A DNA stretch of 64,000 bases from Nitrospira sp. (GCA_046604365.1 JBJACV010000007.1:121877-185876), one strand, 5' to 3'; shown: positions 6,682-61,326, counted from the first letter of the stretch. Numbers and translations: made by a program. The notes: generated by a model from the letters alone, not told the origin.

Positions 6682-6690
6682 GTTCCTTGT

Positions 6691-7227: not shown

Positions 7228-8165
7228 GACGGCTTCTGATCCTTTCGCGGCAGAGCGGTTGTGACCGAACGTGCCCGCGGGTGGGCATGGTCGTAGACGG
7301 CAGCCAAGCGATCGCCGGCCAGATGCGTATATTTCTGCGTGGTGCTGAGCGACGCATGCCCGAGCATCTCCTGAATCGATCTGAGGTCTGCGCCCTCATC
7401 GAGCAGATGGGTTGCGTAGGAATGCCGCAGGGCATGTGGACTGACGGCTCCACCGGCAAGGCGACTGGAATATCGAGAAACGATTCGGGCCACGCTCCGT
7501 GTGGTGAGTCTGCCTCCGCGATGATTCAAGAACAGAGGAGCGGCCGGGTGCCGTTCGATGGATTCAGACCCCAGTGATTGACGATACGCGCGGATGGCTC
7601 GAGTTGCGACATCACCGATCGGGATCACTCGTTCCTTCCGGCCCTTGCCTCTCAGGCGGACAAGTCCCTCACCTTCATCGAGATCACCGACGTTGATTCC
7701 GACCGCTTCACTGACACGAGCGCCGGTGGAATACAATGTTTCAAGCAGAGCGCGATCGCGCAAGGAGAGAGAGGACTGGCCCTCAGGAAATTCCATCAAG
7801 GCTCCGGCGTCGTCCTTGGCCAGAACGCGTGGAAGCGGTTTGGACAGTTTGGGGCTCCGGATATCATCCGCCGGATTCTTCTGTACCGATCCTTCACGCA
7901 GAAGAAATCGGTAGAAACTCCGTACGGCAGCCAGCTTTCTCGCCAGGGACGAGGCTTTCTCACCTTGTCGATCCAACTGGTGGAGGTACGCCCGGATATC
8001 TTCAGCCGTAACATGGTCTGCTTGAATCGGACGGGATGCGTGGCCTGTTCCAGAAAGAAATGATGTCAACTGCCGGAGATCCGACCGGTAATTGCGAATG
8101 GTTTCGGCGGATGCATTACGCTCGACGTCAAGAAAGCTCATGAAAGCCCGGATTGCGTCTTCCAT
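7224..8165 (-). CDS. xerC: Tyrosine recombinase XerC/XerD family (chromosome dimer resolution)
   Basis: 313 aa. N-terminal SAM-like domain ([20 protein letters not shown]) and catalytic region ([52 protein letters not shown]). Its stop overlaps the hslV start (ATGA). The trmFO-xerC-hslVU synteny supports a housekeeping role. Confidence 0.85.
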
Positions 8166-44872: not shown

Positions 44873-45442
44873 AGAGAGGTTCCTTATATAGGGCGTGTGT
44901 GTCTTTGCAAACCATAGCAAATCATGCTGTCTTGTCAAGAATTTGAGCATTTGGCTCATGGTTTGACGGAGGTTTTTCTGAGTGTTATGGTGTCTCGGCT
45001 TGCCGGTACCTGTCCATGCAACGCTGTGAAGGGATAGTTTATGAACGGACGTCGCGATCAAGACCCGGCGATGCCATTCGGCGATCGGAAGAAAACCAGG
45101 ATCGAGACACAGATTCATCGGCGGCGGAAGGCCAAGGCTTCCGGTCCGATGGAGTCAGAGTGGGATATTTCTCAACCGCAGCCGTCTGCCCAGTTACGGA
45201 TGGTTCCTTCAGCGGGACAGACTCGGAGCCGAACCTAATCCACACCCAAAAGTATTCGCAGACTCATGGGCCTGTCGAGTTCCGACAGATGCCTTTGCAA
45301 ATACAGTGGAGTTCGCGCATTGATCCATCCCCAATTTTATGTTCGCTTTAGCCTTTACAGGAGCGTGTGCTCCTATCTCGTCGTAGCATGAATCGGAATA
45401 TCTAGGGCTTTAGGGGCCGGTTCTGTTAGGTCCTTTGTTCGC

Positions 45443-45472
45443 TTGCTATCCCTAGGATCGAGGCTCTAAAAT
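45443..45472 (+). promoter_or_regulatory. Candidate sigma-70-like promoter for the nuo operon
   Basis: TTGCTA (45443-45448), 18-nt spacer, TAAAAT (45467-45472), about 25-45 nt upstream of the possible nuoA starts. Found by eye only. Confidence 0.3.
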
Positions 45473-45494
45473 TTCGATTCTTCTTTCAAGGTCA

Positions 45495-45899
45495 ATGCCT
45501 TGTGAGGCAAGGGCGATGGGCGATACTGATCAGCTCCTTGATTATTTAACCAAGTTTTTTCCGATCCTGTTCTTCATTTTCGTCGCGCTTGCGTTCGGGG
45601 TGCTGACGTTGGTGATCAGCTATTTTGTTCAGCCCAGGTATCCGGAGCCTGAAAAACTATCGACCTATGAATGTGGCGCCGAACCGTTCTCTGATGCCCG
45701 TATGCCGTTCCCGGTGCGCTACTACATTTTTGCGATGTTGTTCGTCATTTTCGATATTGAAGTAATCTTTCTCTATCCATGGGCGGTAGTCTTTACCAAA
45801 ATTGGGCTGATCGGTTTGATTGAGATGATCATTTTTATCGCCCTGTTCGTTGTGGCCTATGTGTATGCCTGGCGGAAGGGTGCGCTGGAGTGGGACTGA
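45495..45899 (+). CDS. nuoA: NADH-quinone oxidoreductase subunit A
   Basis: [41 protein letters not shown] is the NuoA signature. The start may be the ATG at 45516 (MGDTDQL, GAGG upstream). Confidence 0.9.
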
Positions 45900-45906
45900 G
45901 GTTTAT

Positions 45907-46434
45907 ATGGGATTGATTCAACTGGGACGTCAGGAAAAGGACGGTGCCCCCGATGTGTTCACGGGCACCTTGGAAAAAGCCGTGAACTGGGCGCGAAAAG
46001 GTTCGCTTTGGCCCATGACCTTCGGGCTTGCCTGTTGTGCCATCGAGATGATGGCCGCCGTCTCTTCACGGTACGACATGGACCGGTTCGGAGCCGGGGT
46101 GTTTCGGGGTTCGCCTCGGCAGTCGGATTTGATGATCGTTGCCGGAACGGTCTGTCGGCGGATGGCGCCCGTCATCCGAAAGATCTATGACCAGATGCCG
46201 GAACCGAAATATGTCATCGCGATGGGCTCCTGCGCCACGTCCGGGAACATCTACGATAGCTATAGTGTCGTGCAAGGAGTCGATCGGTTCGTTCCCGTCG
46301 ATATTTATGTGCCCGGCTGTCCGCCGACCCCTGAAGCTCTCTTGGACGGCATCTTGAAATTGCAAGAGCGGATCATGGAGAAGCGGGTGTTTGTCGCCCA
46401 ACCGAAAGAGATTAAAGCAAGCTTGAAGGTCTGA
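45907..46434 (+). CDS. nuoB: NADH-quinone oxidoreductase subunit B
   Basis: The ATG at 45907 gives [25 protein letters not shown], then [10 protein letters not shown] and VPGCPP (N2 cluster ligands). Confidence 0.95.
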
Positions 46435-46444
46435 CGGTACTGCG

Positions 46445-46942
46445 ATGCATCAACTGGCAACACGGATTCAGGAGTCCTTCTCGGACGGTTTTGTCGGCGC
46501 GACAGAATGGCGGGGCGATGTGGCGGTGACGGTGACCCGTGACAAGCTGCGTGACGTCGCCAAATTTCTGCGTCATGAACCGGGAATGGATTTCGATTAC
46601 ATCGTCCATGTGAGTTCCGTGGATTGGCCCGATGATGAAGAACGATTCGAAGTCGTGTGGGAATTCTACTCGATTCGAAAACGGCATCGTATTCGACTCA
46701 AGACGCGAGTGCCCGAATCGGACTGTGTGGTCGATTCCCTGACGGACTTGTGGAAAGGCGCTGATTTCATGGAGCGTGAAGTGTACGACATGATGGGTAT
46801 CCGGTTTCGCAATCACCCGGACCTGCGCCGGATTTTGATGCCGGATGATTTCACGGAAGGCTACCCGTTGCGGAAGGATTTTCCGCTTCGCGGCAAAGGT
46901 TGGCGGGACACGTTCGAATTCCTGGACGAAATTCCACGGTAG
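46445..46942 (+). CDS. nuoC: NADH-quinone oxidoreductase subunit C
   Basis: 165 aa. WKGADFMEREVYDMMGIRFRNHPDLRRILMPDDFTEGYPLRKDFPL is the NuoC/30-kDa signature. Confidence 0.9.
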   Translation: MHQLATRIQESFSDGFVGATEWRGDVAVTVTRDKLRDVAKFLRHEPGMDFDYIVHVSSVDWPDDEERFEVVWEFYSIRKRHRIRLKTRVPESDCVVDSLTDLWKGADFMEREVYDMMGIRFRNHPDLRRILMPDDFTEGYPLRKDFPLRGKGWRDTFEFLDEIPR

Positions 46943-46956
46943 GACGCGGCAGCAGC

Positions 46957-48201
46957 ATGGCATTTGAAGATCAGAGAACTACGATCTACAAGGTCAATCC
47001 GGAGCATCCGGAAAGCGAAACGCTTCCGACTCTGCGAACCGAGGAGCTCTTGCTTAACCTGGGACCTCAGCACCCCAGCACGCACGGAGTTCTCAAAGTG
47101 ATTTTGGAGTTGGAGGGGGAACGGCTGGTGAAATCCACACCGGTGATGGGTTATCTCCATCGTGGAGTCGAAAAGCTGGCCGAAGACGGCACCTATCACC
47201 AGTTCATTCCCCATACGGACCGGCTCGACTATGTCTGTGCGATGTACAATAACTTCGCCTATTGCCGCGCCGTGGAGAAGCTGCTGGATCTCAAAGTTCC
47301 CGAGAGAGGGGAGTATCTCAGAACGATTGTTGCGGAGGTGCAGCGCATCATCGGCCATCAATTTTGGCTGGGGGCTCAAGCGCTCGATATCGGGGCGATG
47401 ACCGTCTTTTTCTATTGTTTTCGCGATCGAGAAATCCTGCTCGATTGGTTCGATGAGTTGTGCGGAGCGCGTCTCACGACGAGTTGGTATCGCATCGGCG
47501 GGGTAGAGCGAGACCTGACCCCCGGGTTGATCGATAAGCTCAAGCAGTTCATCGACTACTTTCCTCCTAAGATTGAGGAGTATCAGGTCTTTCTTGAGAA
47601 AAACCGCATCTGGCTGGGACGCACCAAGGGCGTGGCGGTCATTTCCGCGGAAGACGCCGTCAATTTTGGGCTGAGCGGGCCGACTTTGCGCGGCTCCGGT
47701 GTGGACTATGACCTTCGGAAGTACGAGCCTTATAGCGCGTACCCCAAGTGCGAGTTCAGCGTACCGGTCGGAAAAAACGGCGATACGTATGACCGGTATT
47801 GGATCCGGGTGATGGAACTGTACGAAAGCGTCAAGATCATCCGGCAGTGCCTCGAGCAAATGCAGGATGGTCCGGTCATGGCCGATGTCCCAAGCGTGAC
47901 ACTGCCGCCGAAGGAGCGGGTGTTTACAAATTTGGAATCGATGATCCAGCAGTTCAAGCTGTTCTCTCAGGGATTCCAGGCTCCTCCCGGTGAGATTTAT
48001 TGCGGCACCGAAGCCCACAAGGGCGAGCTGGGTTTTTACATCGTCAGTACAGGCGGAGGGAAACCCTATCGACTGAAGATCCGCGCCCCGTCCTTCATTC
48101 ATATGGGCGCCTTCGATCATATGTCCAGAGGCTATATGATCTCCGATGCCTGTACCATCTTCGGGACGTACGATATCGTGATGGGGGAATGCGACCGGTA
48201 A
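46957..48201 (+). CDS. nuoD: NADH-quinone oxidoreductase subunit D
   Basis: The ATG at 46957 gives MAFEDQ..LNLGPQHPSTHGVLKVILELEGE, then HRGVEKLAE and a C-terminal DIVMGECDR. Confidence 0.95.
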   Translation: MAFEDQRTTIYKVNPEHPESETLPTLRTEELLLNLGPQHPSTHGVLKVILELEGERLVKSTPVMGYLHRGVEKLAEDGTYHQFIPHTDRLDYVCAMYNNFAYCRAVEKLLDLKVPERGEYLRTIVAEVQRIIGHQFWLGAQALDIGAMTVFFYCFRDREILLDWFDELCGARLTTSWYRIGGVERDLTPGLIDKLKQFIDYFPPKIEEYQVFLEKNRIWLGRTKGVAVISAEDAVNFGLSGPTLRGSGVDYDLRKYEPYSAYPKCEFSVPVGKNGDTYDRYWIRVMELYESVKIIRQCLEQMQDGPVMADVPSVTLPPKERVFTNLESMIQQFKLFSQGFQAPPGEIYCGTEAHKGELGFYIVSTGGGKPYRLKIRAPSFIHMGAFDHMSRGYMISDACTIFGTYDIVMGECDR

Positions 48202-48292
48202 GGAAGTCGTGAATGATGACGGTTCAAGGTTGCAATGATGAGCGGACATCCGCACCGACTATATTCAGCGCATCATTCAACAGTGAGGCACC

Positions 48293-50986
48293 ATGGGGCT
48301 GAAGCCAGGCACTAATCCCGACGTCGAGGCCGCGACGATTCAACTCAATATCGACGGGAAGACCGTGACGGCGAAGGACGGGATCTCGTTGTACGATGTT
48401 ATTTCGATGACGGGGAAAATCATCCCGGCCATGTGCTACCACTACACTTTCGATCCATTCGGATCTTGCGGCATGTGCCTTGTGATGCAAGAAGGGAAAA
48501 AGGCGCCCGTCCGGTCCTGCACCGCGAAGGCGACGGCGGGGATGGTCATACGAACCGAGGGGGAGGATCTCTTCCTTGCCCGTAAAAAAGCCGTTGAGAA
48601 GCATCTGTCCGTGCATCCGCTCGACTGCCCGGTCTGCGATGCAGACGGCCATTGCGAACTCCAGGACATGGCCTTCGAGCACGGCGTGACCAATCTTGCC
48701 AATGCCAAGCAGAAGTTCATTCCGGAAGATACCCGCAGTCCGGTTCTGGACTTCAATATGAACCGCTGCATCGCCTGCGCCGAATGTATCAACGTCTGCA
48801 AAGATGTGCTGATGATCGATGCGCTGCAATTCATGAAAAAGGGCGGATTCAATCAAGTGGTCCCGAAGGGCGACGTCGCCCTCTCCTGCGAATTCTGCGG
48901 GGATTGCCTGGCGGTCTGCCCGGTCGGCGCCATTACAAACAAGTTCTCCAAGTATTTGTACAAGCCCTGGCAGATGAAGAAGACGACGACGACCTGCAAT
49001 TACTGCGGGGATGGCTGCCAGATGTACCTGGAAACGAAAGATGAAGAGGTGATCCGCGTCACCTCGCCCCTCTCCTGGAAGAATAAGTGGGGAGACCGGT
49101 CGGAAACGGCCAAAGGCCACGGCGGCCTTTGTGTGCGTGGGCGATTCGGATTTGAGTATCTAGACGGGAAGACCCGATTACGGCATCCATTGGTTCGTGA
49201 GGGCAACCGGCTGGTCGAAAAACCATGGCTTGAGGCTATGCACCTAGTCGTAGACCGATTTGCGAATATCAAGAGCAAATACGGCGCCGATGCCATTGCA
49301 GGATTAGTCACCGCACGATGCACGAACGAAGAGCTGTATTTGTTCCAGAAGCTGATGCGGATCGGGTTCGGGAGCAATCATCTTGACAGCAGCGCCCGCT
49401 ACGGCCACCTGAATTTCGTGCATGCCTCGAAACATGCTCTTGGGCTAGGACGGACGCCGAATGATTGGGAAGATCTCACCAAAGCCAAAGCCATCCTCCT
49501 CATCGGCTCGAACATCACGGAAACGAATCCCCTGACAGCCGTGCGGATCAAAGAAGCGATTCGCGTCTATAAGGCACAGGTGGTGACGCTGGATTCCGCC
49601 GTGACCAACATGGCCAAGCTGGCTTCTCATCCGTTTGTGATCAAGCCCGGCACGGAGGGATTGGTCATTCATGGGTTGGTGAAGGCGACGATCGAGCAGG
49701 ACTTGGTGGATGACGAAGCGACCAAGACGCATCCCCAGGCTTTCGCCGCGCTTCAGGCCGCGGTTGCAGGCCTTTCACTAGACGACGTTGCCTCTCAAAC
49801 CGGCCTGACCACGGACAGCTTGAGAGACATTGCAGCGATTTTCGCCGAAGCACCGCGCGCGATCATTATGTGCGCGGAAGGCATCGTGAGGAGAGCCGGT
49901 GGTTACGACAATGTGCTGAAACTCATCGACTTGGCCTGGATCACCGGCAAACTCGGCCGTCCCGGTTGTGGTGTGAATACCGTGACCGAGGAGCCGAATG
50001 AGCAGGGCGCCGTCGATATGGGCGTGGCGCCTGAGTTTTTGCCGGGTCAAGCAAGGTTTGACGATCCGGTTGCACGCGAGCGATTCGCAAAGGCTTGGGG
50101 TGCGGCACTTCCAGTGAGTCGTGCCGGGTCGAGTCTCGTCGATATCCTCAACGGATGTAAGAACGGCAGCATCAAGGCGTTATATGTCCTCGGAGAAAAT
50201 CCGCTGGAGACTTTGCCGGCTTCTATGGAAATACGGGCTGCATTGGATCGGCTGGAGTTGCTCGTTGTCCAGGATCCGTTCTTGACCCAGACGGCTCGGC
50301 AGGCGCATGTCGTGTTCCCCGCTTGTACCTACGCAGAAAAGGACGGGACCTTCACGAATCTGGAGGGCCGTGTCCTCCGGGTTCGTCAAGCAATGGATCC
50401 GATCGGGGAAAGTCTGCCGGATTGGCATATCATGACCTCCCTGGCCAATGCGTTGGGATGTCAGTGGGAGTATCAATCGGTCAATGATATTCAATCGGAA
50501 ATGATGAAGCTCTTACCGGGTTACTACAACCTTGGCCAACCGCGCAAAGTGGTATCGTCGCCGGATCGCTACTTGGAAGATGGGTATGCCGCCGAGGTCG
50601 CCGTCCGTTACCGGACGATGCCGACGTCGCATGACAGTGCGCGTCCGTTCTCATTGCAGATGGGCCAGCTGCTGATGCACTCGGGCAAGATGTCGACGGA
50701 AGCTCCCGGCCTCATCAAAATTGCTCCGAATACCGGCAAGCTTCGTATGAGTCCGGCGGATATGGACCGGCTTGGCCTGCAGGACGGCATGAAAGTGCGT
50801 CTGACTTCCAATCTGGGGTCCCTCCAGCTTGGGGTCCAACCCGACCAGTCTGTTGCCATCGGGACCTGTTTCTTTCCGGAACACTTCAACGAACCGCCCG
50901 TGAAAGATTTGATGAGTGTCTCAGTGGATCCCATGACCGGTGTTCCTGCTTTCAAGCAGGCATGGGTCAGTATTGAACGAGCGTAA
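48293..50986 (+). CDS. nuoG: NuoG-like Fe-S / molybdopterin-oxidoreductase-fold subunit
   Basis: 897 aa. N-terminal 2Fe-2S ferredoxin (CYHYTFDPFGSCGMCLV), the His-Cys3 cluster motif HPLDCPVCDADGHCELQD, two 4Fe-4S motifs (CIACAECINVC, CEFCGDCLAVCP), then an MopB domain (TTTCNYCGDGCQMYLE). It sits in the G position of the operon. Confidence 0.8.
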   Translation: MGLKPGTNPDVEAATIQLNIDGKTVTAKDGISLYDVISMTGKIIPAMCYHYTFDPFGSCGMCLVMQEGKKAPVRSCTAKATAGMVIRTEGEDLFLARKKAVEKHLSVHPLDCPVCDADGHCELQDMAFEHGVTNLANAKQKFIPEDTRSPVLDFNMNRCIACAECINVCKDVLMIDALQFMKKGGFNQVVPKGDVALSCEFCGDCLAVCPVGAITNKFSKYLYKPWQMKKTTTTCNYCGDGCQMYLETKDEEVIRVTSPLSWKNKWGDRSETAKGHGGLCVRGRFGFEYLDGKTRLRHPLVREGNRLVEKPWLEAMHLVVDRFANIKSKYGADAIAGLVTARCTNEELYLFQKLMRIGFGSNHLDSSARYGHLNFVHASKHALGLGRTPNDWEDLTKAKAILLIGSNITETNPLTAVRIKEAIRVYKAQVVTLDSAVTNMAKLASHPFVIKPGTEGLVIHGLVKATIEQDLVDDEATKTHPQAFAALQAAVAGLSLDDVASQTGLTTDSLRDIAAIFAEAPRAIIMCAEGIVRRAGGYDNVLKLIDLAWITGKLGRPGCGVNTVTEEPNEQGAVDMGVAPEFLPGQARFDDPVARERFAKAWGAALPVSRAGSSLVDILNGCKNGSIKALYVLGENPLETLPASMEIRAALDRLELLVVQDPFLTQTARQAHVVFPACTYAEKDGTFTNLEGRVLRVRQAMDPIGESLPDWHIMTSLANALGCQWEYQSVNDIQSEMMKLLPGYYNLGQPRKVVSSPDRYLEDGYAAEVAVRYRTMPTSHDSARPFSLQMGQLLMHSGKMSTEAPGLIKIAPNTGKLRMSPADMDRLGLQDGMKVRLTSNLGSLQLGVQPDQSVAIGTCFFPEHFNEPPVKDLMSVSVDPMTGVPAFKQAWVSIERA

Positions 50987-51028
50987 TCGGGTGTGTATGC
51001 TGCGCCCGTCGGCGAACAGGAGACCCGG

Positions 51029-51616
51029 ATGAGCGTTTCCGTAATAACCAAGAAAATTCTCCAGGCCGCGCTGTTCTATGAGATTTGGGACGCGATGAAG
51101 GTGACCTTCAAGCACATGTTCCATCAGCCGATCACGTTTCAATACCCGCGCGAACAGCGGGAGATTCCGCATGCCCATCGGGGCGCCCTGGGGTTGCTTC
51201 GATACGACGACGGCCGAGAGCGGTGCGTCGGGTGTGATCTCTGCGAGGTGGCCTGTCCCTCCCATTGCATCAAGGTGATCAGCGCCGAGGATACGGCCCG
51301 CCCGCTTCAACGGTACGCAAGCGAGTTTTATATCGATGTGACGAAGTGCGTCTTTTGCGGCTATTGTGTAGAGGCCTGCCCGGTCAATGCGTTGGCGATG
51401 ACCAAGATGTACGAGTATTCCACCCATGACAAGCGCACATTGCTCTTCGATAAGAAGCGCCTGTACGACATCGGGGAGCGCCACCTCAATGACGCCAAGC
51501 AATATCTGTATGCCCACAATCAGGAAAAGAATGTCGAGGAGAGCCGTGAGTATCGGTACTATTTTCCGCAGTCCGTACTCAAGTCCACGCAAACGCCTCC
51601 CAAGCATCTGAGCTGA
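51029..51616 (+). CDS. nuoI: NADH-quinone oxidoreductase subunit I
   Basis: The ATG at 51029 (AGGAG 8 nt upstream). Two 4Fe-4S ferredoxin motifs: CVGCDLCEVACP and CVFCGYCVEACP. Confidence 0.9.
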   Translation: MSVSVITKKILQAALFYEIWDAMKVTFKHMFHQPITFQYPREQREIPHAHRGALGLLRYDDGRERCVGCDLCEVACPSHCIKVISAEDTARPLQRYASEFYIDVTKCVFCGYCVEACPVNALAMTKMYEYSTHDKRTLLFDKKRLYDIGERHLNDAKQYLYAHNQEKNVEESREYRYYFPQSVLKSTQTPPKHLS

Positions 51617-51625
51617 GTCGAAGAC

Positions 51626-52153
51626 ATGGTTGCCGTCTTTTTTGCGTATTTCGCATTGGTGAGTATTGCCGCCGGCGTTCTGACGGTGTCGCTGAAAAAC
51701 CCCGTCCACTGCGGGCTCGCATTGCTCGCGCTGTTGATGCACGTCTCCGGTCTTTTCGTCCTGCTCAATGCCGAATTTCTCTGGGCGGTGCAGGTCATTG
51801 TCTATGCCGGCGCCATTCTGGTGCTCTACCTGTTCGTGCTCATGTTGCTCAATCTCAAGGCCGATGAACGGTATTTTCATTCGTCGTACCCCTATTTCCT
51901 CGGCCCCGCTCTCTTAGGGGCTTGTTATGTAATTTTTCTTTTGATTCGGTCTCCCTATGCGGGAGTCAAAGGCGATGCTCCCGACGCTGCCGTGCTGGAA
52001 CACGGGGACACGTATGCCGTGGGCATCAAGATGTTCAGCGACCATCTGCTGCAGTTTGAAATCATCGGTGTCTTTCTGTTGGGCGCCATCATCGGTGCGA
52101 TCGTCTTGGCGAAGACGCCGAAATCGATCGACACCATGAGCGGGAAGGAGTGA
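51626..52153 (+). CDS. nuoJ: NADH-quinone oxidoreductase subunit J
   Basis: 175 aa. LKNPVHCGLALLALLMHVSGLFVLLNAEFLWAVQVIVYAGAILVLYLFVLML. Confidence 0.9.
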   Translation: MVAVFFAYFALVSIAAGVLTVSLKNPVHCGLALLALLMHVSGLFVLLNAEFLWAVQVIVYAGAILVLYLFVLMLLNLKADERYFHSSYPYFLGPALLGACYVIFLLIRSPYAGVKGDAPDAAVLEHGDTYAVGIKMFSDHLLQFEIIGVFLLGAIIGAIVLAKTPKSIDTMSGKE

Positions 52154-52159
52154 GGGGCG

Positions 52160-52462
52160 ATGGTTCCGCTTAGCGCCTATGTGGCGGTCAGCGCGGTCCT
52201 GTTCATGACGGGATTGCTCGGCGTCTTGATTCGACGGAATTTTATTATCGTGCTCATGTCCGTGGAAATCATGATGAACGCCGCCAATATCAATCTGGTG
52301 GCGTTTTCGCACTACTTGGAGTCCATGGCCGGCCAGCTTACCGCCCTGTTTTTTATTGCCGTCGCAGCCGGGGAAGCCGCAGTCGGACTGGCCATCATCA
52401 TCGTGGTGTTTCGTGGAAAAGTTTCTACGAATGTCGATGAGATGAACGTCTTGAAGTGGTAG
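52160..52462 (+). CDS. nuoK: NADH-quinone oxidoreductase subunit K
   Basis: 100 aa. LFMTGLLGVLIRRNFIIVLMSVEIMMNAANINLVAF..AAGEAAVGLAIII. Confidence 0.95.
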   Translation: MVPLSAYVAVSAVLFMTGLLGVLIRRNFIIVLMSVEIMMNAANINLVAFSHYLESMAGQLTALFFIAVAAGEAAVGLAIIIVVFRGKVSTNVDEMNVLKW

Positions 52463-52485
52463 CAGGATGGAGATGACGACCTAGC

Positions 52486-54462
52486 GTGTCCGACTTAACC
52501 GATCTTCTCATCAAACTGATTCCGATTCTCCCGCTCCTGGCCGTGATTTCCAACGGACTTCTGGGCAGCCGCTATTCTCACGAGATGGCCCATCGGTTGG
52601 CGTGGGGATCGGTCGGCCTTTCCTTTCTCTGTGTCATCGGCGTGTTCGCCGATATTCTGCGAACCGGAACTGCGCACGAAGTCGTCGCCTACCAATGGAT
52701 CTTCGGGGGCGATCTCACGATCAATCTGGCCTATCTGGTCGATCCGTTGACCTGCGTGATGTTGCTCGTGGTGACCGGAGTGGGTTTTCTCATTCATGTC
52801 TACTCAGTCGGGTATATGCACGGTGAACCGGGCTTCACGCGGTTCTTTACCTACATGAACCTCTTCATGGTCTCCATGCTGCTGCTGGTGATGGGGAATA
52901 ATTATCTGGTTCTGTTTATCGGCTGGGAAGGAGTCGGGCTCTGTTCGTATTTGCTCATCGGGTACTACTACGACAAAGTGTCGGCGGCGAAGGCGGCGAC
53001 GAAGGCCTTTGTGGTCAATCGCATCGGCGATGCAGGGTTCTTGTTGGCCATCTTTCTGATCTTCGTCAACTTCAAGACCCTGGACTACACCAAGGTGTTT
53101 GCGCAGGCCGGCCAGCTTTCGCCTGAGATGGCAACCGCTATCGCGCTCTGCTTGCTGGTCGGTGCGGTCGGCAAATCCGCCCAGCTCCCTCTCTATACCT
53201 GGTTGCCTGACGCGATGGAGGGTCCGACGCCGGTCAGCGCGCTTATCCATGCCGCCACCATGGTGACAGCAGGTGTGTACATGATTGTCCGTAATCATGT
53301 CATTTTCGATCTCTCTCCCACTGCGATGGAAGTGGTCGGTTTTGTCGGCGGCGGTACGGCCCTATTCGCCGCCACGATCGGTTTGGTCCAGACCGATATC
53401 AAGCGGGTGCTGGCCTATTCAACGGTCAGCCAGTTGGGGTACATGTTCCTGGGTTGCGGCATCGGCGCCTACACCGCTGCTATCTTCCACTTGATGACCC
53501 ATGCCTTTTTCAAAGCCCTGCTGTTTTTGTCCGCGGGGTCGGTGATTCACGCCCTGTCAGGCGAGCAAGACATCAGAAAAATGGGCGGGCTGAGCAAGAA
53601 AATCCCTTGGACGTACCGTCTGTTTCTGATCGGCACCATCGCGATTGCCGGGATTCCTCCTTTGGCGGGATTCTGGAGCAAAGACGAGATCATGGCCCAT
53701 GCCTTTACCCATGACCACTTCCTGCTCTATAGCATCGCGGCGATCGGCGCTTTTCTCACCTCCTTTTACATGTTTCGGCTGACCTACCTGACCTTTTATG
53801 GTGAGTCCAGAATGGATCACCATGCCGAAGCGCATGTCCACGAATCGCCGCTGGTGATGATTGGTCCTTTGGTTGCGCTTGGTTTCTTATCGCTTGTCGG
53901 CGGGTTGCTGTTGGGGTTTCCCCCGGAACATGGCTGGTTGCATCAATTTCTGGCGCCGGTTGTGGGCTCGGCCGGTGAACACGAGGTGAGCATGGGGTTG
54001 GTGTCCGCTCTCATGGTTGTGGCAACCGGCATCGCAGTGATTGGGTGGGGGCTGGCCCACTTCATGTACCAGGTGAGCACTCCGACGGCCGATGTGTGGG
54101 CCGAGAAATTCTCCGGCGCCTACAGGACCCTGTTGAACAAATATTATGTCGATGAACTCTATGATTTCATGATCGTCGAGCCCCTCAAGCGCTTGGGAGA
54201 CCTGCTTGATTGGTTCGATCGCACAGTCGTCGACGGTCTCGTCCGTGGAGTCGGACGCCTGGCCGATTGGGGCTCTGCCGGATCGACATGGATTGAAAAG
54301 TATGTTGTGTATGCGGGGTTGAATGTCATCGGATACGGCAATCACCTCGCGGCGCGCGAGGGGCGGAAGATGCAGAGCGGAATGGTCCACCATTATGTCG
54401 CTCTCATCGTCGCCGGGCTCTTTCTGTTGGCGCTGGTCGTTCAATTCCTGGTTCAGATGTAG
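52486..54462 (+). CDS. nuoL: NADH-quinone oxidoreductase subunit L (long form, 658 aa)
   Basis: GTG start. It has MGNNYLVLFIGWEGVGLCSYLLIGYYY, AVGKSAQLPLYTWLPDAMEGPTPVSALIHAATMVTAG, and a C-terminal lateral helix plus final TM. Confidence 0.9.
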   Translation: MSDLTDLLIKLIPILPLLAVISNGLLGSRYSHEMAHRLAWGSVGLSFLCVIGVFADILRTGTAHEVVAYQWIFGGDLTINLAYLVDPLTCVMLLVVTGVGFLIHVYSVGYMHGEPGFTRFFTYMNLFMVSMLLLVMGNNYLVLFIGWEGVGLCSYLLIGYYYDKVSAAKAATKAFVVNRIGDAGFLLAIFLIFVNFKTLDYTKVFAQAGQLSPEMATAIALCLLVGAVGKSAQLPLYTWLPDAMEGPTPVSALIHAATMVTAGVYMIVRNHVIFDLSPTAMEVVGFVGGGTALFAATIGLVQTDIKRVLAYSTVSQLGYMFLGCGIGAYTAAIFHLMTHAFFKALLFLSAGSVIHALSGEQDIRKMGGLSKKIPWTYRLFLIGTIAIAGIPPLAGFWSKDEIMAHAFTHDHFLLYSIAAIGAFLTSFYMFRLTYLTFYGESRMDHHAEAHVHESPLVMIGPLVALGFLSLVGGLLLGFPPEHGWLHQFLAPVVGSAGEHEVSMGLVSALMVVATGIAVIGWGLAHFMYQVSTPTADVWAEKFSGAYRTLLNKYYVDELYDFMIVEPLKRLGDLLDWFDRTVVDGLVRGVGRLADWGSAGSTWIEKYVVYAGLNVIGYGNHLAAREGRKMQSGMVHHYVALIVAGLFLLALVVQFLVQM

Positions 54463-54489
54463 AGGGTCGAGGGGCGGACGGCGGTCATT

Positions 54490-56049
54490 ATGTTGGAAGA
54501 ACTCACAGCGGGGTTTCCGGTCCTTTCCTGCATTCTCTTTTTGCCCGTTCTGGGAGCCATCGTGCTGTGGCTGTTCGAGGATGAGGACATGATCCGGACG
54601 TCGGCGCTCGCCATCACGCTGGTTGAACTCGCGCTCTCGGTGTTTGTGCTGCTGCGGTTTGTGCCGGAATCGGCTGCCATGCAGTTCGCGGAGCGTGTGA
54701 GATGGATTCCCGCGCTGGGTATCAGTTACCACCTGGGCGTCGACGGCATCAGCGTACTCTTCGTGGGATTGACGGCTTTTCTGAGCGTGTTGGTCGTGAT
54801 CTATTCCTGGGACACGATCCGCCACCAAGTGAAGCTCTACATGATGTGTCTCTTGGCGCTTGAAACGACGACGATGGGCGTGTTCGTTTCATTGGATCTG
54901 ATCTTGTTCTTCGTCTTCTGGGAGCTGATGCTGATTCCCAGCTACTTTCTGATCAAACTGTGGGGTGGAGGCGCCGAGCGCCATTATGCGGCGTTGAAGT
55001 TCGTTCTCTACACCCTTTTGGGCAGTGTCTTCATGCTGGTCGGCATCGCCTTGCTCAATATCAACTTCCATCAGTGGGCGTCTTTGCACCATACGGATCA
55101 AAGCTATTCGTTCGATTTACTCGAGCTTCTCTCGGCGCCGATTCCGATGGATCAGCAGATCCTGATCTTCTGGCTCATGTTCATGGGATTTGCATTCAAG
55201 GCCCCGATCTTCCCGTTCCACACATGGCTACCGGATGCGCTGATGGAGGGCCCTATCGGCATGGCGGTGGTGCTGGCCGGACTGAAGCTTGGCACGTTCG
55301 GCTTTATGCGCTTCAGCCTGCCGCTTCTTCCCGATGCTTCCCAAAGCGACACGGTCGTGACCGTGGTTGTCGTGCTTGGACTATGCGCCATTCTGTATGG
55401 AGCCTGGATGGCGTTGGTTCAACCGGACTTCAGGCGTCTGTTAGCCTACAGCAGCGTCAGCCATTTGGGTTTCATCGTCGTGGGGCTGTTCTCGCTGAAT
55501 TACCAAGGTCTGCAGGGCAGCCTTCTGACGATGATCAATCTGGGATTCAGCACGGCCGGCCTCTTCTTTATTGCGGGGTTTCTCTATTCGCGTCAACAGT
55601 CCACGCAGCTGTCGGCGTTCGGGGGGATGGCCAAACAAGTGCCGCTCTTGGCCACGTTCTTTCTGATTATCGGACTGGCCTCGATCGGACTTCCGGGAAC
55701 GAACGGTTTTGTGGGGGAGTTTCTCATCCTCTTGGGCGCATTCAAAGCAAAGTGGTGGTTCGGAGCGGTGGCTGTGCTCGGCGTCATTTTTGGGGCGGCC
55801 TATTTTCTCTGGTACTACGAACGCGCCATGCTGGGCCCGGTCGGTAAGGCGGTGAAACAGACGATGAGCGACCTTCAATTGCGTGAGATGGTCATTGCCG
55901 TTTCGCTGTCGGTCATGATTCTGTGGATCGGGCTGTATCCGTCGCCCTTTCTTCGAATCATGAACGGATCGGTGCAGGCGCTCGTCGATCGGTTGAATCA
56001 CGGCACAGTGGCGGCACTCGGATCCTCCACGGCTGAAAAGGGACGCTGA
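54490..56049 (+). CDS. nuoM: NADH-quinone oxidoreductase subunit M (canonical copy)
   Basis: 519 aa. FFVFWELMLIPSYFLI (TM5 Glu), GFAFKAPIFPFHTWLPDA (TM7 Lys), LKLGTFG, and LAYSSVSHLGF. Confidence 0.9.
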   Translation: MLEELTAGFPVLSCILFLPVLGAIVLWLFEDEDMIRTSALAITLVELALSVFVLLRFVPESAAMQFAERVRWIPALGISYHLGVDGISVLFVGLTAFLSVLVVIYSWDTIRHQVKLYMMCLLALETTTMGVFVSLDLILFFVFWELMLIPSYFLIKLWGGGAERHYAALKFVLYTLLGSVFMLVGIALLNINFHQWASLHHTDQSYSFDLLELLSAPIPMDQQILIFWLMFMGFAFKAPIFPFHTWLPDALMEGPIGMAVVLAGLKLGTFGFMRFSLPLLPDASQSDTVVTVVVVLGLCAILYGAWMALVQPDFRRLLAYSSVSHLGFIVVGLFSLNYQGLQGSLLTMINLGFSTAGLFFIAGFLYSRQQSTQLSAFGGMAKQVPLLATFFLIIGLASIGLPGTNGFVGEFLILLGAFKAKWWFGAVAVLGVIFGAAYFLWYYERAMLGPVGKAVKQTMSDLQLREMVIAVSLSVMILWIGLYPSPFLRIMNGSVQALVDRLNHGTVAALGSSTAEKGR

Positions 56050-56053
56050 GTTC

Positions 56054-57760
56054 ATGGGTGAATACGCACTGCTCTATATTCTCTTCGCTCCCTTCGCCGG
56101 CGCGTTGGCGCTGATTCTGGTCTCGAATCGGCAGCCGATGCTGGTCCGAGGCATCGCCGCGAGTGCGGCCTTCGTGTCCCTGGTTGCATCAATATATTTG
56201 TTTTATGCCTACGATCCGGTCAAAGGCGGGTTCCAGTTCGTCCAGAAGTTCGAATGGTCGAGGCAACTCGGTATTTCGCTGTATCTTGGGGTGGATGGCA
56301 TCGGGACCCCGCTCGTGCTGGCCTCGGCGGTCTTGTTGTTTACGGGCATTTTTGTATCGTGGCACATCAGGGATCGCGCGAAAGAATTCTACATCTGGTT
56401 GCTGATTCTCGCCGCCGCCACGATCGGCGTCTTTATGTCCCTGGATCTGTTTTTCCTCTACTTCTTCTATGAGATGTCCGTGATTCCCATGTATCTCTTG
56501 CTGGGCATGTGGGGCAGCCACACCAAGCGGTATTTGGAGATGACGGATACGGAAGGACTCAAACTGAGAGATTCCGTCGGCTTCATTTTCAACTTCGGAT
56601 CGAACAGCAAGGAATACGCGGCGATGAAGTTGGTGCTCTTCTTGTCGGCCTTCGCGGTGGCGGCGCTGATGGGTATCCTGCTGATTTACAAGTATGCCGG
56701 GCTCAATACGTTCGACATTCTCGTGCTTCGCGAGCAGGCTCACCTCATGAATATTCCTGTGCTCGGCACAACCCTGGACAAGATCATTTGGGTGCTGGTC
56801 TTTTTCGGCTTCGCCTCGATCGCTCCGTTGTGGCCGCTCCATTCATGGTCTCCGGTCGGTCATGCCGCGGCTCCGGCCGCGACCAGTATGCTGCATGCCG
56901 GCGTGCTCATGAAACTTGGACATTTTTCGATTATTCGGGTGGCGTTTGAAATTTTGCCTGAGACGACCCGTGAGATGATGCCGATCGCGGCCGTCCTCTG
57001 CATGTTCAGCATCGTCTACGGAGGGTTTGTCGCCTTCTACGCCAAGGACACTAAATATGTCATCGGTTATTCCAGCTCGAGCCACATGGGTTATGTGTTT
57101 CTTGGGATGGCGGCATTGAATTACATCAGTTTGAGCGGCGCAGTCATTTATATGTTTGCCCATGCCATGGCCACCGGCATGCTCTTCGCCATGGCAGGGT
57201 GGGTTTACGACCAGACCCACACGCGGGATCTTCCATCATTGGGAGGCCTCTCGAACAAGATGCCGTTTATCTCCGGATGTTTCATCGTCGGGTGCATGGC
57301 CTCGATCGGCATGCCGGGGACAGTGAATTTCATCGCTGAAATCATGATCATCGTCGGCAGCTGGGAGAAGTATCCCCTTCAAGTCATTGTCGCCGTGCTG
57401 GGGATCGTTCTCACCATGGCCTATCTCTTCAAAATGATGCGGAGCCTGTTCTATGGGCCGATGAATCAACAATACAGCCATGCGCACGATGCCGTGTCGG
57501 CCGTTGATAGGCTGCCATTGCTGGTCATGATTGCCGTCAGCGTGGGATTCGGTATTTTTCCGATGCATTTGTACGATGTGGTTCGTTCAGGCGTCGATCC
57601 ATTAGTCGCCAGGATCACCCATGTTGTTCCGGTCGCCCAGAGCGGCGATGGGTTAGGGGTGAAGAGTGAGGCCACGATCCCGTTGGTCAGGGATCATGTT
57701 CCCCTTGTCGCAAACAACCCCGTACCTCTGACCGCTGACCCTTCACGAGGGCACGAATGA
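56054..57760 (+). CDS. nuoM: Second NuoM-type antiporter-like subunit (divergent copy M')
   Basis: 568 aa. LYFFYEMSVIPMYLLL, GFASIAPLWPLHSWSPVGH, LMKLGHFS, and IGYSSSSHMGYVF. It starts 4 nt after the first nuoM and overlaps nuoN by 4 nt. Confidence 0.85.
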   Translation: MGEYALLYILFAPFAGALALILVSNRQPMLVRGIAASAAFVSLVASIYLFYAYDPVKGGFQFVQKFEWSRQLGISLYLGVDGIGTPLVLASAVLLFTGIFVSWHIRDRAKEFYIWLLILAAATIGVFMSLDLFFLYFFYEMSVIPMYLLLGMWGSHTKRYLEMTDTEGLKLRDSVGFIFNFGSNSKEYAAMKLVLFLSAFAVAALMGILLIYKYAGLNTFDILVLREQAHLMNIPVLGTTLDKIIWVLVFFGFASIAPLWPLHSWSPVGHAAAPAATSMLHAGVLMKLGHFSIIRVAFEILPETTREMMPIAAVLCMFSIVYGGFVAFYAKDTKYVIGYSSSSHMGYVFLGMAALNYISLSGAVIYMFAHAMATGMLFAMAGWVYDQTHTRDLPSLGGLSNKMPFISGCFIVGCMASIGMPGTVNFIAEIMIIVGSWEKYPLQVIVAVLGIVLTMAYLFKMMRSLFYGPMNQQYSHAHDAVSAVDRLPLLVMIAVSVGFGIFPMHLYDVVRSGVDPLVARITHVVPVAQSGDGLGVKSEATIPLVRDHVPLVANNPVPLTADPSRGHE

Positions 57761-59250
57761 CCTTCACGCTGACTCTGTCCTTCGCCGATCTTCTGTTGCT
57801 GTTGCCGGAGATTGTGCTGACCTGCTGGCTCTGCGTCGTCGTGATTGTTGATTTCTCCGTTCCACGCTTGCCCAAGGAACAATTGGCCATTCTCAGCATT
57901 ACCGGCCTCCTGGCCACCCTAGGTTGTTTGGTGTGGTTCGATGTGACTCATGTGTCGGGCGCCCTGTTCGGCAATATGTTCGTGCTGGACCGCATGGCCA
58001 TCTTTTTCAAGATATTTATCGTCGGCTCGACGGCGCTTGTCATTCTTGCGTCGATTCAGTACGTCGAGCGTTTCAGATTCTTTCGGGGTGAATACTACGT
58101 GCTGGTCGTCATGTCGGCTCTCGGCATGATGTTCATGTCCTCGGCCAACGATCTGCTGTCCCTTTTCGTCAGCCTGGAGTTTTCGACCCTCGGGTTTTAC
58201 ATTCTGGTGGGCTATCTTCGTGAGGATTTGGCCTCGAATGAGGCCGGCCTCAAGTTCTTCATCCTGGGCGTGTTCGCCGCCGGGCTCCTCGCCTACGGTA
58301 TCAGTCTCGTCTACGGGGAGACGGGGAAGCTGGTGTTTTCAGAGATGAATCTATCCGCTACCCCGGGCGCGATCATCGGCTTCTTGCTGATCTTCGCCGC
58401 GCTCGGGTTCAAAATCGGAGCTGTTCCTTTCCATTCGTGGATTCCTGATACGTATCATGGCGCGCCGACGCCTGTGACGGCGTACTTATCGATCGCTCCG
58501 AAGGGCGCTGCGTTCGCTATCCTGCTCCGTATCTTCTTCGTGGCGTTGGCCTCCTTCAAACCGATGTGGGTCATTCTGTTGGTAGCGGTCTCTATCTTGT
58601 CGATGACTTATGCCAATATCGTGGCGATTGCCCAACGGAACATCAAGCGTCTTCTGGCCTATTCCGGTATCGCTCAGGTCGGGAACGTGTTGATCGGCTT
58701 GGCGGCTGGGACGAAAATGGGGAATGACGCCATTTTGTTTTACCTCTTGGCCTATCTTTTTGCGAATCTCGGCGCCTTTGCCGTTGTTATTGCCGTCAGC
58801 CACGCGATCGGCAGTGATGACATCGACGACTACAATGGTTTGAACCGCCGCTCTCCGTTCCTGGCCTTCTCGATGCTGCTGTTTCTCCTATCTCTAGCCG
58901 GGGTGCCGCCGCTGGCGGGGTTTATCGGCAAACTCTACATTTTCATCGCGGCGATTAAGGAAGGACTGTATACGCTGATTACGGTTGGGCTGATCAATAT
59001 CGTGATTTCGATGTACTATTACTTGATCGTCGTGAAGAAAATGTATATCAATGAGCCGACCAATCCCTCGCCTGTCACCATTTCTGGTCCGATGAAGGCT
59101 GTCGTCTATATCGGTCTGGCAGGAACATTGGTCATTGGCATTTATCCTCAGCCGTTCATCGATTGGGTTGTCGGCGCGACGCTCATGTTCTCGAACCTTC
59201 CCGCTCCTTCAGCCATCGTCACCCCGCCCGTCCCGCCCTTCGGCGGATAG
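57757..59250 (+). CDS. nuoN: NADH-quinone oxidoreductase subunit N
   Basis: 497 aa. SLEFSTLGFYILVGY, GFKIGAVPFHSWIPDTYHGAPTPVTAYLS, and LLAYSGIAQVG. Confidence 0.9.
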   Translation: MTFTLTLSFADLLLLLPEIVLTCWLCVVVIVDFSVPRLPKEQLAILSITGLLATLGCLVWFDVTHVSGALFGNMFVLDRMAIFFKIFIVGSTALVILASIQYVERFRFFRGEYYVLVVMSALGMMFMSSANDLLSLFVSLEFSTLGFYILVGYLREDLASNEAGLKFFILGVFAAGLLAYGISLVYGETGKLVFSEMNLSATPGAIIGFLLIFAALGFKIGAVPFHSWIPDTYHGAPTPVTAYLSIAPKGAAFAILLRIFFVALASFKPMWVILLVAVSILSMTYANIVAIAQRNIKRLLAYSGIAQVGNVLIGLAAGTKMGNDAILFYLLAYLFANLGAFAVVIAVSHAIGSDDIDDYNGLNRRSPFLAFSMLLFLLSLAGVPPLAGFIGKLYIFIAAIKEGLYTLITVGLINIVISMYYYLIVVKKMYINEPTNPSPVTISGPMKAVVYIGLAGTLVIGIYPQPFIDWVVGATLMFSNLPAPSAIVTPPVPPFGG

Positions 59251-59363
59251 TTTTCCCCGTTTCGCCGTTCGTGGGTTCTGCTACAATTGGCCGTGAGCGC
59301 ACGAGTTCTAGCGTACGCGGTTGCCACCCACACAATTGTCTTGGATTCCGGCCGGCACCGTCT

Positions 59364-60857
59364 ATGTTTATGGAATCACCTACAAAGGAACAGCCGCAAA
59401 TTTCGCTTGCACCGATTAGGGGACCTGAGCCTCACAGCCCCCCTCCCTTGCCTGGGTCATTCTGGCGCGCTCCGATCATGTGGTTTTTGGCACTTACGAT
59501 TGAACGGCGGATCTTGGCCGGGTTCAGTCTCGTGTTCGCCGGCATTCTCGTGATCAGTACAGTGTCGTATCGCAACACCAGCACGGTAATCGCCAACAGC
59601 GGGCTCGATACCCGCAGCCACGAACTCGTGCAGCTATTGACCAATATCGATATGGCAATGGACCAAACCGAGAACAATCACCGCCGGTATCTTGTCACAG
59701 GAGAAGAGCTCTATCTCGAGTCCTACCAGTCGGTCATCAAACAGAAGCCGACGTTTATCAAATACCTCGAACAGCTGACGGAGGGAGTGCCCGAACAGCA
59801 GGAACGCGTCGCGTTGCTCGAGCGAATGATGGATCGGCAACTGGCTGCGGAGGCCGATGCGATTACCGTCCTTACCAATAGAGGATTCGAGGCGGTCAAG
59901 AAAATAGCGCTCGAAGGAGCCGCAGCGCTGGAGATCAGTGAGATTCACCGGGTTGTTGCCGAAATGGAGGCATACGAACGGCAGGCATTGCGTCGGCGGG
60001 TGTTAGAATCTGCGGCCACGACGACGAATACGATCGTGCTGCTCAGCATTGGCGCGCTGCTTCAGTTCGTGCTGCTGGCGTCCGTATACTATTTGATCAG
60101 GCATGACATCACGGAACGGCGGCGTGTCGCCGATGAACTGCAGCGGCGCGGCGAACTTCTCGAGGCCGCGAACAAGGAGCTTGAATCCTTCAGCTATTCG
60201 GTTTCTCACGACTTGCGCGCTCCGCTTCGCCATATCGATGGGTATGCGTCGCTGTTGCGCAAAGCGGTGACTGAATCGTTGAACGAAAAGGCCGCCAGGT
60301 ATTTGCAGACGATCTCCGACTCTGCCAAACAGATGGGCCAACTGATCGACGATTTGCTGGTGTTTTCTCGGATGGGCCGTCAGGAGATGCTTCAAACGAC
60401 CGTTGATTTGAACCAACTGATCCGAACCATCCTTTACGATTTGCGACTTGACTTGCAAGGACGCGAGATATCTTGGACAATTGCCACACTCCCGGAAGTG
60501 CTGGGTGATCCGGCCATGCTCCGGCAGGTGTTTATGAATCTGATCGCGAATGCGGTGAAATTCACGAGCACCAGGCCGCGCGCGCACATTGAGGTCGGCA
60601 TTGACAGGCCGAGTTCCGGTGAAGTCGTCATTTTTGTGCGTGACAACGGAGTGGGATTCGATATGCAGTATGCCGGCAAACTATTCGGCGTGTTTCAGCG
60701 ACTCCATCGGATGGATGAATTTGAAGGAACCGGTATCGGCCTCGCCAACGTGCGTCGGATCGTGCATCGGCATGGCGGGCGCACCTGGGCGGAGGGCGAG
60801 CCGGATAAAGGAGCGACCTTTTATATTACGCTCCCAACCAGGAGGCCTCGATCATGA
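59364..60857 (+). CDS. CHASE3-domain sensor histidine kinase
   Basis: The track ORF begins at 59163, overlapping nuoN. The ATG at 59364 gives MFMESPT.., a TM helix, a CHASE3-like periplasmic segment (VSYRNTSTVIAN..HRRYLVTGEELYLESY), a second TM, the H-box FSYSVSHDLRAPLRHIDGYASLL, and an ATPase with DNGVGFD and GTGIGLANV. Confidence 0.8.
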   Translation: MFMESPTKEQPQISLAPIRGPEPHSPPPLPGSFWRAPIMWFLALTIERRILAGFSLVFAGILVISTVSYRNTSTVIANSGLDTRSHELVQLLTNIDMAMDQTENNHRRYLVTGEELYLESYQSVIKQKPTFIKYLEQLTEGVPEQQERVALLERMMDRQLAAEADAITVLTNRGFEAVKKIALEGAAALEISEIHRVVAEMEAYERQALRRRVLESAATTTNTIVLLSIGALLQFVLLASVYYLIRHDITERRRVADELQRRGELLEAANKELESFSYSVSHDLRAPLRHIDGYASLLRKAVTESLNEKAARYLQTISDSAKQMGQLIDDLLVFSRMGRQEMLQTTVDLNQLIRTILYDLRLDLQGREISWTIATLPEVLGDPAMLRQVFMNLIANAVKFTSTRPRAHIEVGIDRPSSGEVVIFVRDNGVGFDMQYAGKLFGVFQRLHRMDEFEGTGIGLANVRRIVHRHGGRTWAEGEPDKGATFYITLPTRRPRS

Positions 60858-61309
60858 CAGGCGCAAAACCGATCGTACTCGCTGAAGATAATCCGCGAGA
60901 CGCTGAGCTGGCTCTGGCCGCTATGGAGGAACAAAACATTTCCGACAAAGTGGTCCTCTGCCACGACGGCGCCGAAGTATTGGATTACTTGTATTGTCGA
61001 GGGCCGTTTGCTTCCCGGATGAAAGGGAACCCTGCGGTTATCTTTCTGGATATCAAGATGCCCAAAGTAAACGGGCTTGAGGTTTTGCGGACCATCAAGG
61101 GGGATACGCATCTCCGCCCCATTCCTGTCGTCATGCTCACCTCTTCCCGTGAAGAGCGTGACCTCGGCGAGAGTTACGCGCTGGGAGCCAATGCGTATGT
61201 GGTGAAGCCTGTTGAATTCCATCAGTTTGTCTCGGCCGTCAAGGAGCTGGGCACATTCTGGGGTGTGATCAACGAGCCTCCACCGCAGGGATCCGGTTCC
61301 GGCAAGTAA
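60854..61309 (+). CDS. Single-domain response regulator (Rcp1-like receiver)
   Basis: 151 aa. IVLAEDNPRDAELA, VIFLDIKMPKVNGLEVL, PVVMLTSS, and ANAYVVKPVEF. The start overlaps the kinase stop (ATGA). Confidence 0.85.
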   Translation: MTGAKPIVLAEDNPRDAELALAAMEEQNISDKVVLCHDGAEVLDYLYCRGPFASRMKGNPAVIFLDIKMPKVNGLEVLRTIKGDTHLRPIPVVMLTSSREERDLGESYALGANAYVVKPVEFHQFVSAVKELGTFWGVINEPPPQGSGSGK

Positions 61310-61326
61310 CTTTGAATGGAGCTTTG

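Follow-up and report, generated by a model that had tools for sequence, protein, structure and literature searches.

The closest described relatives of the system analysed here are the 2M complex I operons, which are distinguished by a second nuoM-type gene between nuoL and nuoN. In Nitrospira moscoviensis this operon is termed CI_1 (NITMOv2_0156-0167) and, as papers citing Chadwick et al. (2018) present that classification, it represents clade 3 of the 2M type. Clade 3 operons lack nuoE, nuoF and nuoH and have been described as characteristic of Nitrospira (PMC6606698, PMC8115632), they hold an enlarged nuoG homologue (Mundinger et al., PMC6606698), and a 2025 comparative study found the 2M complex to be present in all cultivated Nitrospiraceae. 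The canonical nuo operons of Nitrospira carry a fused nuoCD. Here we describe a 64-kb stretch of DNA from Nitrospira sp. (GCA_046604365.1 JBJACV010000007.1:121877-185876; hereafter the window, with all positions counted from its first nucleotide), the + strand of which contains, at approximately 45516-59250, a complex I gene cluster of the order nuoA-B-C-D-G'-I-J-K-L-M-M'-N, where G' denotes a NuoG-like and M' a second NuoM-type subunit. This cluster is almost certainly the Nitrospira orthologue of 2M complex I, i.e. of CI_1 of N. moscoviensis, and thus a member of clade 3.

A 2M complex I operon without nuoE, nuoF and nuoH

The window and N. moscoviensis CI_1 have the same twelve genes in the same order: nuoE, nuoF and nuoH are absent, an enlarged G' is located between nuoD and nuoI, nuoC and nuoD are separate genes, the second nuoM-type gene sits between nuoL and nuoN, and NuoL is lengthened. 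In the closed N. moscoviensis genome (CP011801.1, 147620-170325) the flanks match as well: genes for PriA and an OmpA-family protein precede the operon, and those for a CHASE3 kinase and a response regulator follow it. With G' being 85% identical, orthology and synteny are clear and the two loci show species-level sequence divergence only.

As seen from open reading frame (ORF) listings and from Pfam and NCBIfam scans, the twelve genes are co-directional and tightly packed (table 1). With the best start codons, which an alignment of 71 loci supports, the spacers from nuoA to M' amount to 7, 10, 14, 91, 42, 9, 6, 23, 27 and 4 nt, and M' and nuoN overlap by 4 nt (ATGA). A first-pass annotation of the window had already described this layout, including the two widest gaps on either side of G' and two consecutive NuoM-type genes of the lengths found here, and in all these points it holds. 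It had placed the beginning of the cluster at 45495, however, which has to be corrected to the most likely nuoA start at 45516: the ATG at 45495, which would give a protein of 134 aa, is not conserved among relatives, and the NuoA protein of N. moscoviensis has 127 aa, in line with a start at 45516.

That no ORF in the cluster resembles NuoE, NuoF or NuoH can be extended to the entire window. In six-frame tblastn searches of the whole 64 kb with proteins of the E. coli MG1655 nuo operon as queries, NuoH, NuoE and NuoF gave no match better than E = 2.7, with the positive controls NuoG, NuoI, NuoL, NuoM and NuoN all producing strong matches. The cluster thus departs from canonical NuoA-N complex I in that no NuoE/NuoF module is encoded together with the complex and that nuoH is missing from the slot between G' and nuoI. 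Nor was an extra membrane protein seen within the cluster, the spacers of which do not exceed 91 nt. Long antisense ORFs within the cluster and a 111-aa ORF 5' of nuoA had no Pfam match, and the latter is not conserved as a protein.

Gene order was compared across 81 related loci (80 GTDB species representatives plus N. moscoviensis), and it is identical in all of them up to the contig ends, with no interruption seen; tblastn found no match to nuoH, nuoE or nuoF in any of the 81. In addition, a short independent Logan contig joins D-G'-I-J directly. Because a closed genome and 80 species representatives share this order, the unusual gene content is not an assembly artefact, and a misassembly that had dropped nuoH, nuoE and nuoF is rejected. 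The idea that M' could be a frameshifted pseudogene fared no better, since its ORF is intact and of full length, is conserved with 83-99% identity across 55 related loci, and has a counterpart detected as peptides in N. moscoviensis. Homologues of G' with 83-98% identity are all from Nitrospira, the nearest GTDB genomes being Nitrospira sp. ST-bin4 and SG-bin2 (98% identity for G').

Some metagenome-assembled genomes (MAGs) show local deviations: nuoK is split in two in L014 (13943-14463), an extra partial nuoL and a nuoM fragment are found upstream of nuoA in L018 (4087-6171), and the first NuoM (M1) is without its first ~280 residues in L062 (16272-17213). Assembly or frameshift errors probably explain all three cases.

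In N. moscoviensis, all 12 CI_1 genes are transcribed, with 23-350 reads per kilobase per million (RPKM), and its proteome contains peptides of G' (72), D (27), L (10), M (6) and M' (7). The cluster is one conserved and expressed 12-gene operon. Its gene content is real and conserved, but it is also already published (Mundinger et al., Bayer et al. and the 2025 comparative study). The first-pass annotation was right in supposing that the NuoM duplication, which defines the known 2M type, was probably not new; the combination of a retained G with absent E, F and H, which it had singled out as worth attention, has been published for Nitrospira as well.

Several other systems share part of this architecture. 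The Complex_I_3 type of 'Candidatus Manganitrophus', a hybrid complex that has been described (PMC9040806), has the same D-G'-I-J-K order without nuoH. Its G' (929 aa) is 47% identical and shows the same degenerate Gly-His site as detailed below, and its M' (57% identity) likewise carries Ile in place of a lysine in the seventh transmembrane helix (TM7). It differs in that NuoL is replaced by two MrpD-like subunits, resulting in five antiporter-like subunits. At the two loci of this type (L085/L086, 1-13095), which are metagenome and MAG contigs, D-G'-I-J-K is followed by a pair of MrpD/L-like genes and then by M, M' and N, with M and M' separated by an ORF of 67 aa that the window operon does not have. 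Since this Manganitrophus-like cluster is also devoid of nuoH, the loss of nuoH is older than the divergence of this cluster and the Nitrospira type. Chloroflexi-type 2M clusters (nuoL-M1-M2-N with nuoBCDI elsewhere; e.g. L084) resemble the window in that a second NuoM without the TM7 lysine adjoins nuoN, but nuoH forms part of their membrane-arm cluster (tblastn E = 3e-67), G' is not encoded in cis and the operon is divided in another way.

A precedent for a G subunit without E and F that is combined with a low-potential electron carrier is provided by complex I of Campylobacter and Helicobacter, which keeps NuoG, has NuoE and NuoF replaced and depends on flavodoxin. It differs from the enzyme considered here by two unrelated genes in the E/F slots, the presence of nuoH, a single NuoM and its forward operation. 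Cyanobacterial and chloroplast NDH-1 as well as the archaeal Fpo-like 11-subunit enzymes, which are ferredoxin- or F420-linked, are further complex I relatives without E and F; they differ in lacking G as well, in keeping an H homologue and in having no second M together with a lengthened L.

The G' subunit and the antiporter-like subunits

G' is closer to FdsA of NAD-dependent formate dehydrogenase than to NuoG, with PDB matches of 428-440 bits for FdsA chains versus 227 bits for NuoG. In the NCBIfam collection, it reaches 478 bits with the Fdh-alpha model TIGR01591 and 364 bits with the NuoG model TIGR01973, which are both below the respective cutoffs of 666 and 470. Its N-terminal iron-sulphur (Fe-S) domains match NuoG Pfam models, and it keeps full Molybdopterin and Molydop_binding domains. 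The best match over residues 9-893 is FdsA of Rhodobacter capsulatus (PDB 6tg9/6tga), with which it shares the domain order and all Fe-S motifs, i.e. those for five clusters, including the second ferredoxin-domain 4Fe-4S that has been lost in E. coli NuoG. Unlike R. capsulatus FdsA, G' is embedded within a nuo operon, has no FdsB, FdsG or FdsD in cis and carries two replacements: the molybdenum (Mo) ligand Cys386 of FdsA corresponds to Gly371 (49403-49405), with the neighbouring His372 being kept, and the catalytic Arg587 corresponds to Thr565 (49985-49987). Gly371 and Thr565 are invariant in 82 G' sequences, and the 47%-identical Manganitrophus-like homologue also has Gly at the Mo-ligand position. 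Invariant columns make up 62-86% of the Fe-S domains versus 26-35% of the Mo-like domains. From this pattern of conservation, we read G' as a putative electron wire with a vestigial catalytic domain.

The two NuoM-type subunits are 31% identical. M1 has all four residues of the canonical charged NuoM axis (GluTM5, LysTM7, LysTM8 and GluTM12), i.e. E145, K237, K266 and E410, and a Leu where E. coli NuoM has H348. M' keeps the TM5 Glu (E140), the TM8 Lys (K287), H344, H370 and the TM12 Glu (E429), but its TM7 Lys, which is K234 in E. coli NuoM, is replaced by Ile256 (56819-56821), and this is so in 56 of 56 Nitrospira sequences. M' also features a 23-aa loop insertion and a C-terminal extension of ~40 aa. 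In a search of 1.84 billion representatives, 24 of the 29 closest clusters covering the TM7 position, and 56 of 144 clusters overall, have a residue other than Lys there, mostly a hydrophobic one, which shows that the absence of this lysine is a trait of a large and widespread NuoM subfamily and not of M' alone. Members of this subfamily adjoin nuoN in the Manganitrophus-like D-G'-I...M-M'-N cluster without H and in an A-H-J-K-L-M...M'-N cluster with H; two further relatives (P0128, P0130) are located at contig ends, where their gene neighbourhood is not visible.

According to mutagenesis, the TM7 lysine is essential in E. coli NuoM. Since Ile replaces it invariantly in M', the pumping competence of M' is an assumption. 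Of the earlier notion that the enzyme has five rather than four pumping modules, the extra NuoM subunit stands, whereas the status of M' as a canonical pump is less certain. NuoL, when aligned to its E. coli counterpart, contains an insertion of ~29 residues in the lateral amphipathic helix of the C-terminal region, as is typical of the 2M type; it fits the 26-aa insertion reported for 2M NuoL (PMC9040806).

Control region and genomic neighbourhood

Across 71 Nitrospira loci, the approximately 110 nt in front of nuoA are conserved at the nucleotide level. Here, two TAGG-N-CTTT-G direct repeats precede a -35-like TTGCTA (45443) and, after a spacer of 18 nt, a -10-like TAAAAT (to 45472); the nuoA leader contains GAGG and a conserved TCAA....TTG..AG block, both 5' of the start codon at 45516. 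The number of sites in the promoter scan is not above chance; in blastn and the 71-locus alignment, these blocks are conserved among Nitrospira species. Together they probably represent the operon promoter with a regulator-binding site. At the nuoN end, a GC hairpin is followed by a T-run (59233-59256), with such terminator-like sites also not being more frequent than expected by chance. The CHASE3 kinase and response regulator encoded downstream, which are syntenic with the operon in N. moscoviensis, are predicted as possible candidates for operon regulators.

Table 1. The complex I operon, its 5' region and the adjoining regulatory genes in the window.
Feature	Position	Strand	Properties and evidence
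conserved operon 5' region	45402..45515	+	promoter scan, blastn, 71-locus alignment
nuoA	45516..45899	+	127 aa; Pfam PF00507, E = 2e-39; FDIE and YECG motifs kept
nuoB	45907..46434	+	175 aa; cluster N2 ligands; PF01058, NCBIfam NuoB 255 bits; CC...C...CP cysteines kept
nuoC	46445..46942	+	165 aa; PF00329, E = 1.6e-46; separate from nuoD
nuoD	46957..48201	+	414 aa; quinone-site His/Tyr; TIGR01962 544 bits, above cutoff; LGPQHPSTHG and HTDRLDY motifs kept in alignment
G' (FdsA-like NuoG)	48293..50986	+	897 aa; five Fe-S cluster motifs, degenerate Mo active site
nuoI	51029..51616	+	195 aa; two 4Fe-4S motifs, C-terminal extension; NCBIfam NuoI above cutoff
nuoJ	51626..52153	+	175 aa; PF00499; Tyr59 equivalent kept
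nuoK	52160..52462	+	100 aa; PF00420; Glu36 and Glu72 equivalents kept
nuoL	52486..54462	+	658 aa; TIGR01974 737 bits
nuoM (M1)	54490..56049	+	519 aa; TIGR01972 547 bits
nuoM' (M2)	56054..57760	+	568 aa; TIGR01972 416 bits
nuoN	57757..59250	+	497 aa; TIGR01770 416 bits; Glu/Lys/Lys/Lys residues kept
CHASE3 histidine kinase and response regulator	59163..61309	+	Pfam; syntenic with operon in N. moscoviensis

Further signalling genes are found in the window. A hybrid kinase follows the CHASE3 kinase and response regulator downstream of nuoN (region 59163-62934), and two very large sensor kinases are encoded at 31447-36267 and 37090-39972, the first of which (1606 aa) combines numerous PAS domains with GAF and a HisKA_3 kinase, and the second of which (960 aa) is a hybrid kinase of the PAS type that includes a receiver domain. 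At 5284-8165 on the - strand, genes for an HslU-like AAA ATPase, an HslV-like proteasome subunit and a XerC/D-type tyrosine recombinase adjoin a GIDA-family (TrmFO/Gid-like) gene, which is an ordinary housekeeping context.

Electron flow, NuoH and alternative readings

The quinone module encoded by the operon looks conventional. In the alignment, the N2 cysteines, the NuoD His/Tyr pair, Glu36 and Glu72 of NuoK, the Tyr of NuoJ and the acidic pair of NuoA are all intact, i.e. B, D, A, J and K are canonical complex I subunits as far as their quinone-site and E-channel residues are concerned. As these are the residues that cooperate with NuoH, a NuoH partner should be needed. In N. moscoviensis, nuoH is present only in the two canonical operons, of which CI_2 is expressed (RPKM 234, 3 peptides) and CI_3 is silent. 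Together with the intact NuoH-facing residues, this location points to the NuoH of CI_2 as the candidate subunit that would be supplied in trans.

Taken together, we consider it reasonably probable that the operon specifies the 2M complex CI_1, working as a reverse ferredoxin reductase with NuoH provided in trans. Such an enzyme would possess four antiporter-like subunits (L, M, M' and N), with the lateral helix extended so as to bridge the additional one, and a normal quinone module consisting of B, C, D and I, while the FdsA-derived Fe-S subunit G' would take the place of the NADH-oxidizing E/F/G module. Running in reverse, the proton motive force would drive electrons from methyl-plastoquinol via N2, N6b and N6a into the Fe-S chain of G', from where they would leave to the low-potential ferredoxin that is required by the reductive tricarboxylic acid (TCA) cycle. 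The missing NuoH, which is indispensable for the quinone cavity and the E-channel, would be borrowed from the co-expressed canonical nuo operon. For the mechanism as outlined, we see an even or slightly better chance. It corresponds to a published and explicitly unproven hypothesis of a reverse quinol-to-ferredoxin reductase driven by proton motive force, with an additional pumping module (PMC6606698, PMC8407350, PMC12324825). The functional reading in the first-pass annotation, i.e. probably no direct NADH use, possibly ferredoxin as a donor or reverse operation, and NuoH from elsewhere or replaced, matches this hypothesis and our sequence checks, but it is not a new one. Direct use of NADH is not expected, since neither the window nor the 81 related loci encode E or F.

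Methyl-plastoquinone in Nitrospira has an E0' of approximately +50-60 mV. With a ferredoxin potential of approximately -420 mV, moving two electrons from methyl-plastoquinol to ferredoxin needs ~0.95 eV by our own arithmetic, and this corresponds to ~190 mV per proton with 5 H+ versus ~237 mV with 4 H+. A fifth proton would thus matter if M' really delivers one.

A number of points weigh against reverse ferredoxin reduction with a borrowed NuoH. The replacement of the TM7 lysine makes a fifth proton pumped via M', and hence the energetic argument, uncertain. The search of the organism's own genome covered the 64-kb window, with the evidence for nuoH in trans coming from N. moscoviensis. To our knowledge, there is no demonstrated precedent for two complex I isoforms sharing NuoH. 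We found no study in the literature that tests direction, partner or subunit composition by biochemical, structural or genetic means, nor any report of a purified or structurally solved 2M complex. Finally, a highly expressed orphan nuoF adjoins a ferredoxin gene in N. moscoviensis and could restore a link to NAD(P)H.

The last point leads to an alternative in which the enzyme is still NAD(P)H-linked because the orphan NuoF (NITMOv2_4064) docks on G' and restores a flavin site, possibly allowing NAD(P)H/ferredoxin confurcation. Mundinger et al. propose a possible interaction of this orphan NuoF with CI_1 (PMC6606698), and G' resembles FdsA, which naturally binds the NuoF-like FdsB. Yet this association is a suggestion made without data, no NuoE-like partner has been reported beside the orphan NuoF, and NuoF-like sequence is absent from the window and from the 81 loci, so that we regard this variant as unlikely. 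We are even more sceptical about a complex that does without any NuoH, with an unrecognized protein closing the quinone cavity or with no quinone reaction taking place at all. The loss of nuoH is old and stable, as the gene is absent from the cluster in 81 of 81 loci as well as in the Manganitrophus-like relative. However, the residues that work with NuoH, i.e. His/Tyr in NuoD, the ligands of N2 and the E-channel acids of NuoA, NuoJ and NuoK, are canonical, the cluster with its narrow spacers contains no extra membrane protein, and a co-expressed NuoH does exist in trans in N. moscoviensis CI_2.

That G' might be an active formate dehydrogenase had to be considered because formate dehydrogenase alpha models and structures give its best scores. 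If so, G' would be a molybdo- or tungsto-enzyme acting on formate or another substrate, and the whole complex a substrate:quinone oxidoreductase on a complex I chassis. The retained Molybdopterin and Molydop_binding domains and His372 are in line with this, and some Mo enzymes, such as arsenite oxidase, have no protein ligand to Mo. Against it stand the replacement of the Mo-ligand Cys/Sec by Gly and of the catalytic Arg by Thr in 82 of 82 G' sequences, with the Gly recurring in the Manganitrophus-like homologue, the much faster evolution of the Mo-like domains compared with the Fe-S domains, and the attribution of formate oxidation by Nitrospira in the literature to a separate soluble NAD-reducing formate dehydrogenase; catalytic activity of G' is therefore judged very unlikely. 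An artefact, whether by misassembly or in the form of a decaying operon with a pseudogenized M', has a practically negligible probability: nothing in its favour was found, the local defects in a few MAGs (split nuoK, truncated M1, extra partial L) notwithstanding, and it is refuted by the common gene order, the intact ORFs and the transcripts and peptides of the orthologue.

The 2M enzyme is possibly not simply a complex I with a fifth pump. This is a tentative thought, to which we give clearly less than an even chance. The complex may be a chimeric assembly that borrows the canonical NuoH, with one gene serving two isoforms. M', with its Ile at the TM7 position, may be a modified or non-pumping coupling element. 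And, as a matter of speculation, the extra 4Fe-4S cluster of G' might wire the side of the vestigial Mo site to the main chain and thereby serve as the entry or exit point for ferredoxin.

In the literature, no candidate other than the 2M complex I has been named for ferredoxin reduction in Nitrospira, and what the sequence adds here is the degenerate FdsA-like G' and the M' subunit without its TM7 lysine. At stake is how Nitrospira, i.e. the dominant nitrite oxidizers and complete nitrifiers, reduce ferredoxin for CO2 fixation with electrons from a substrate of very high potential.

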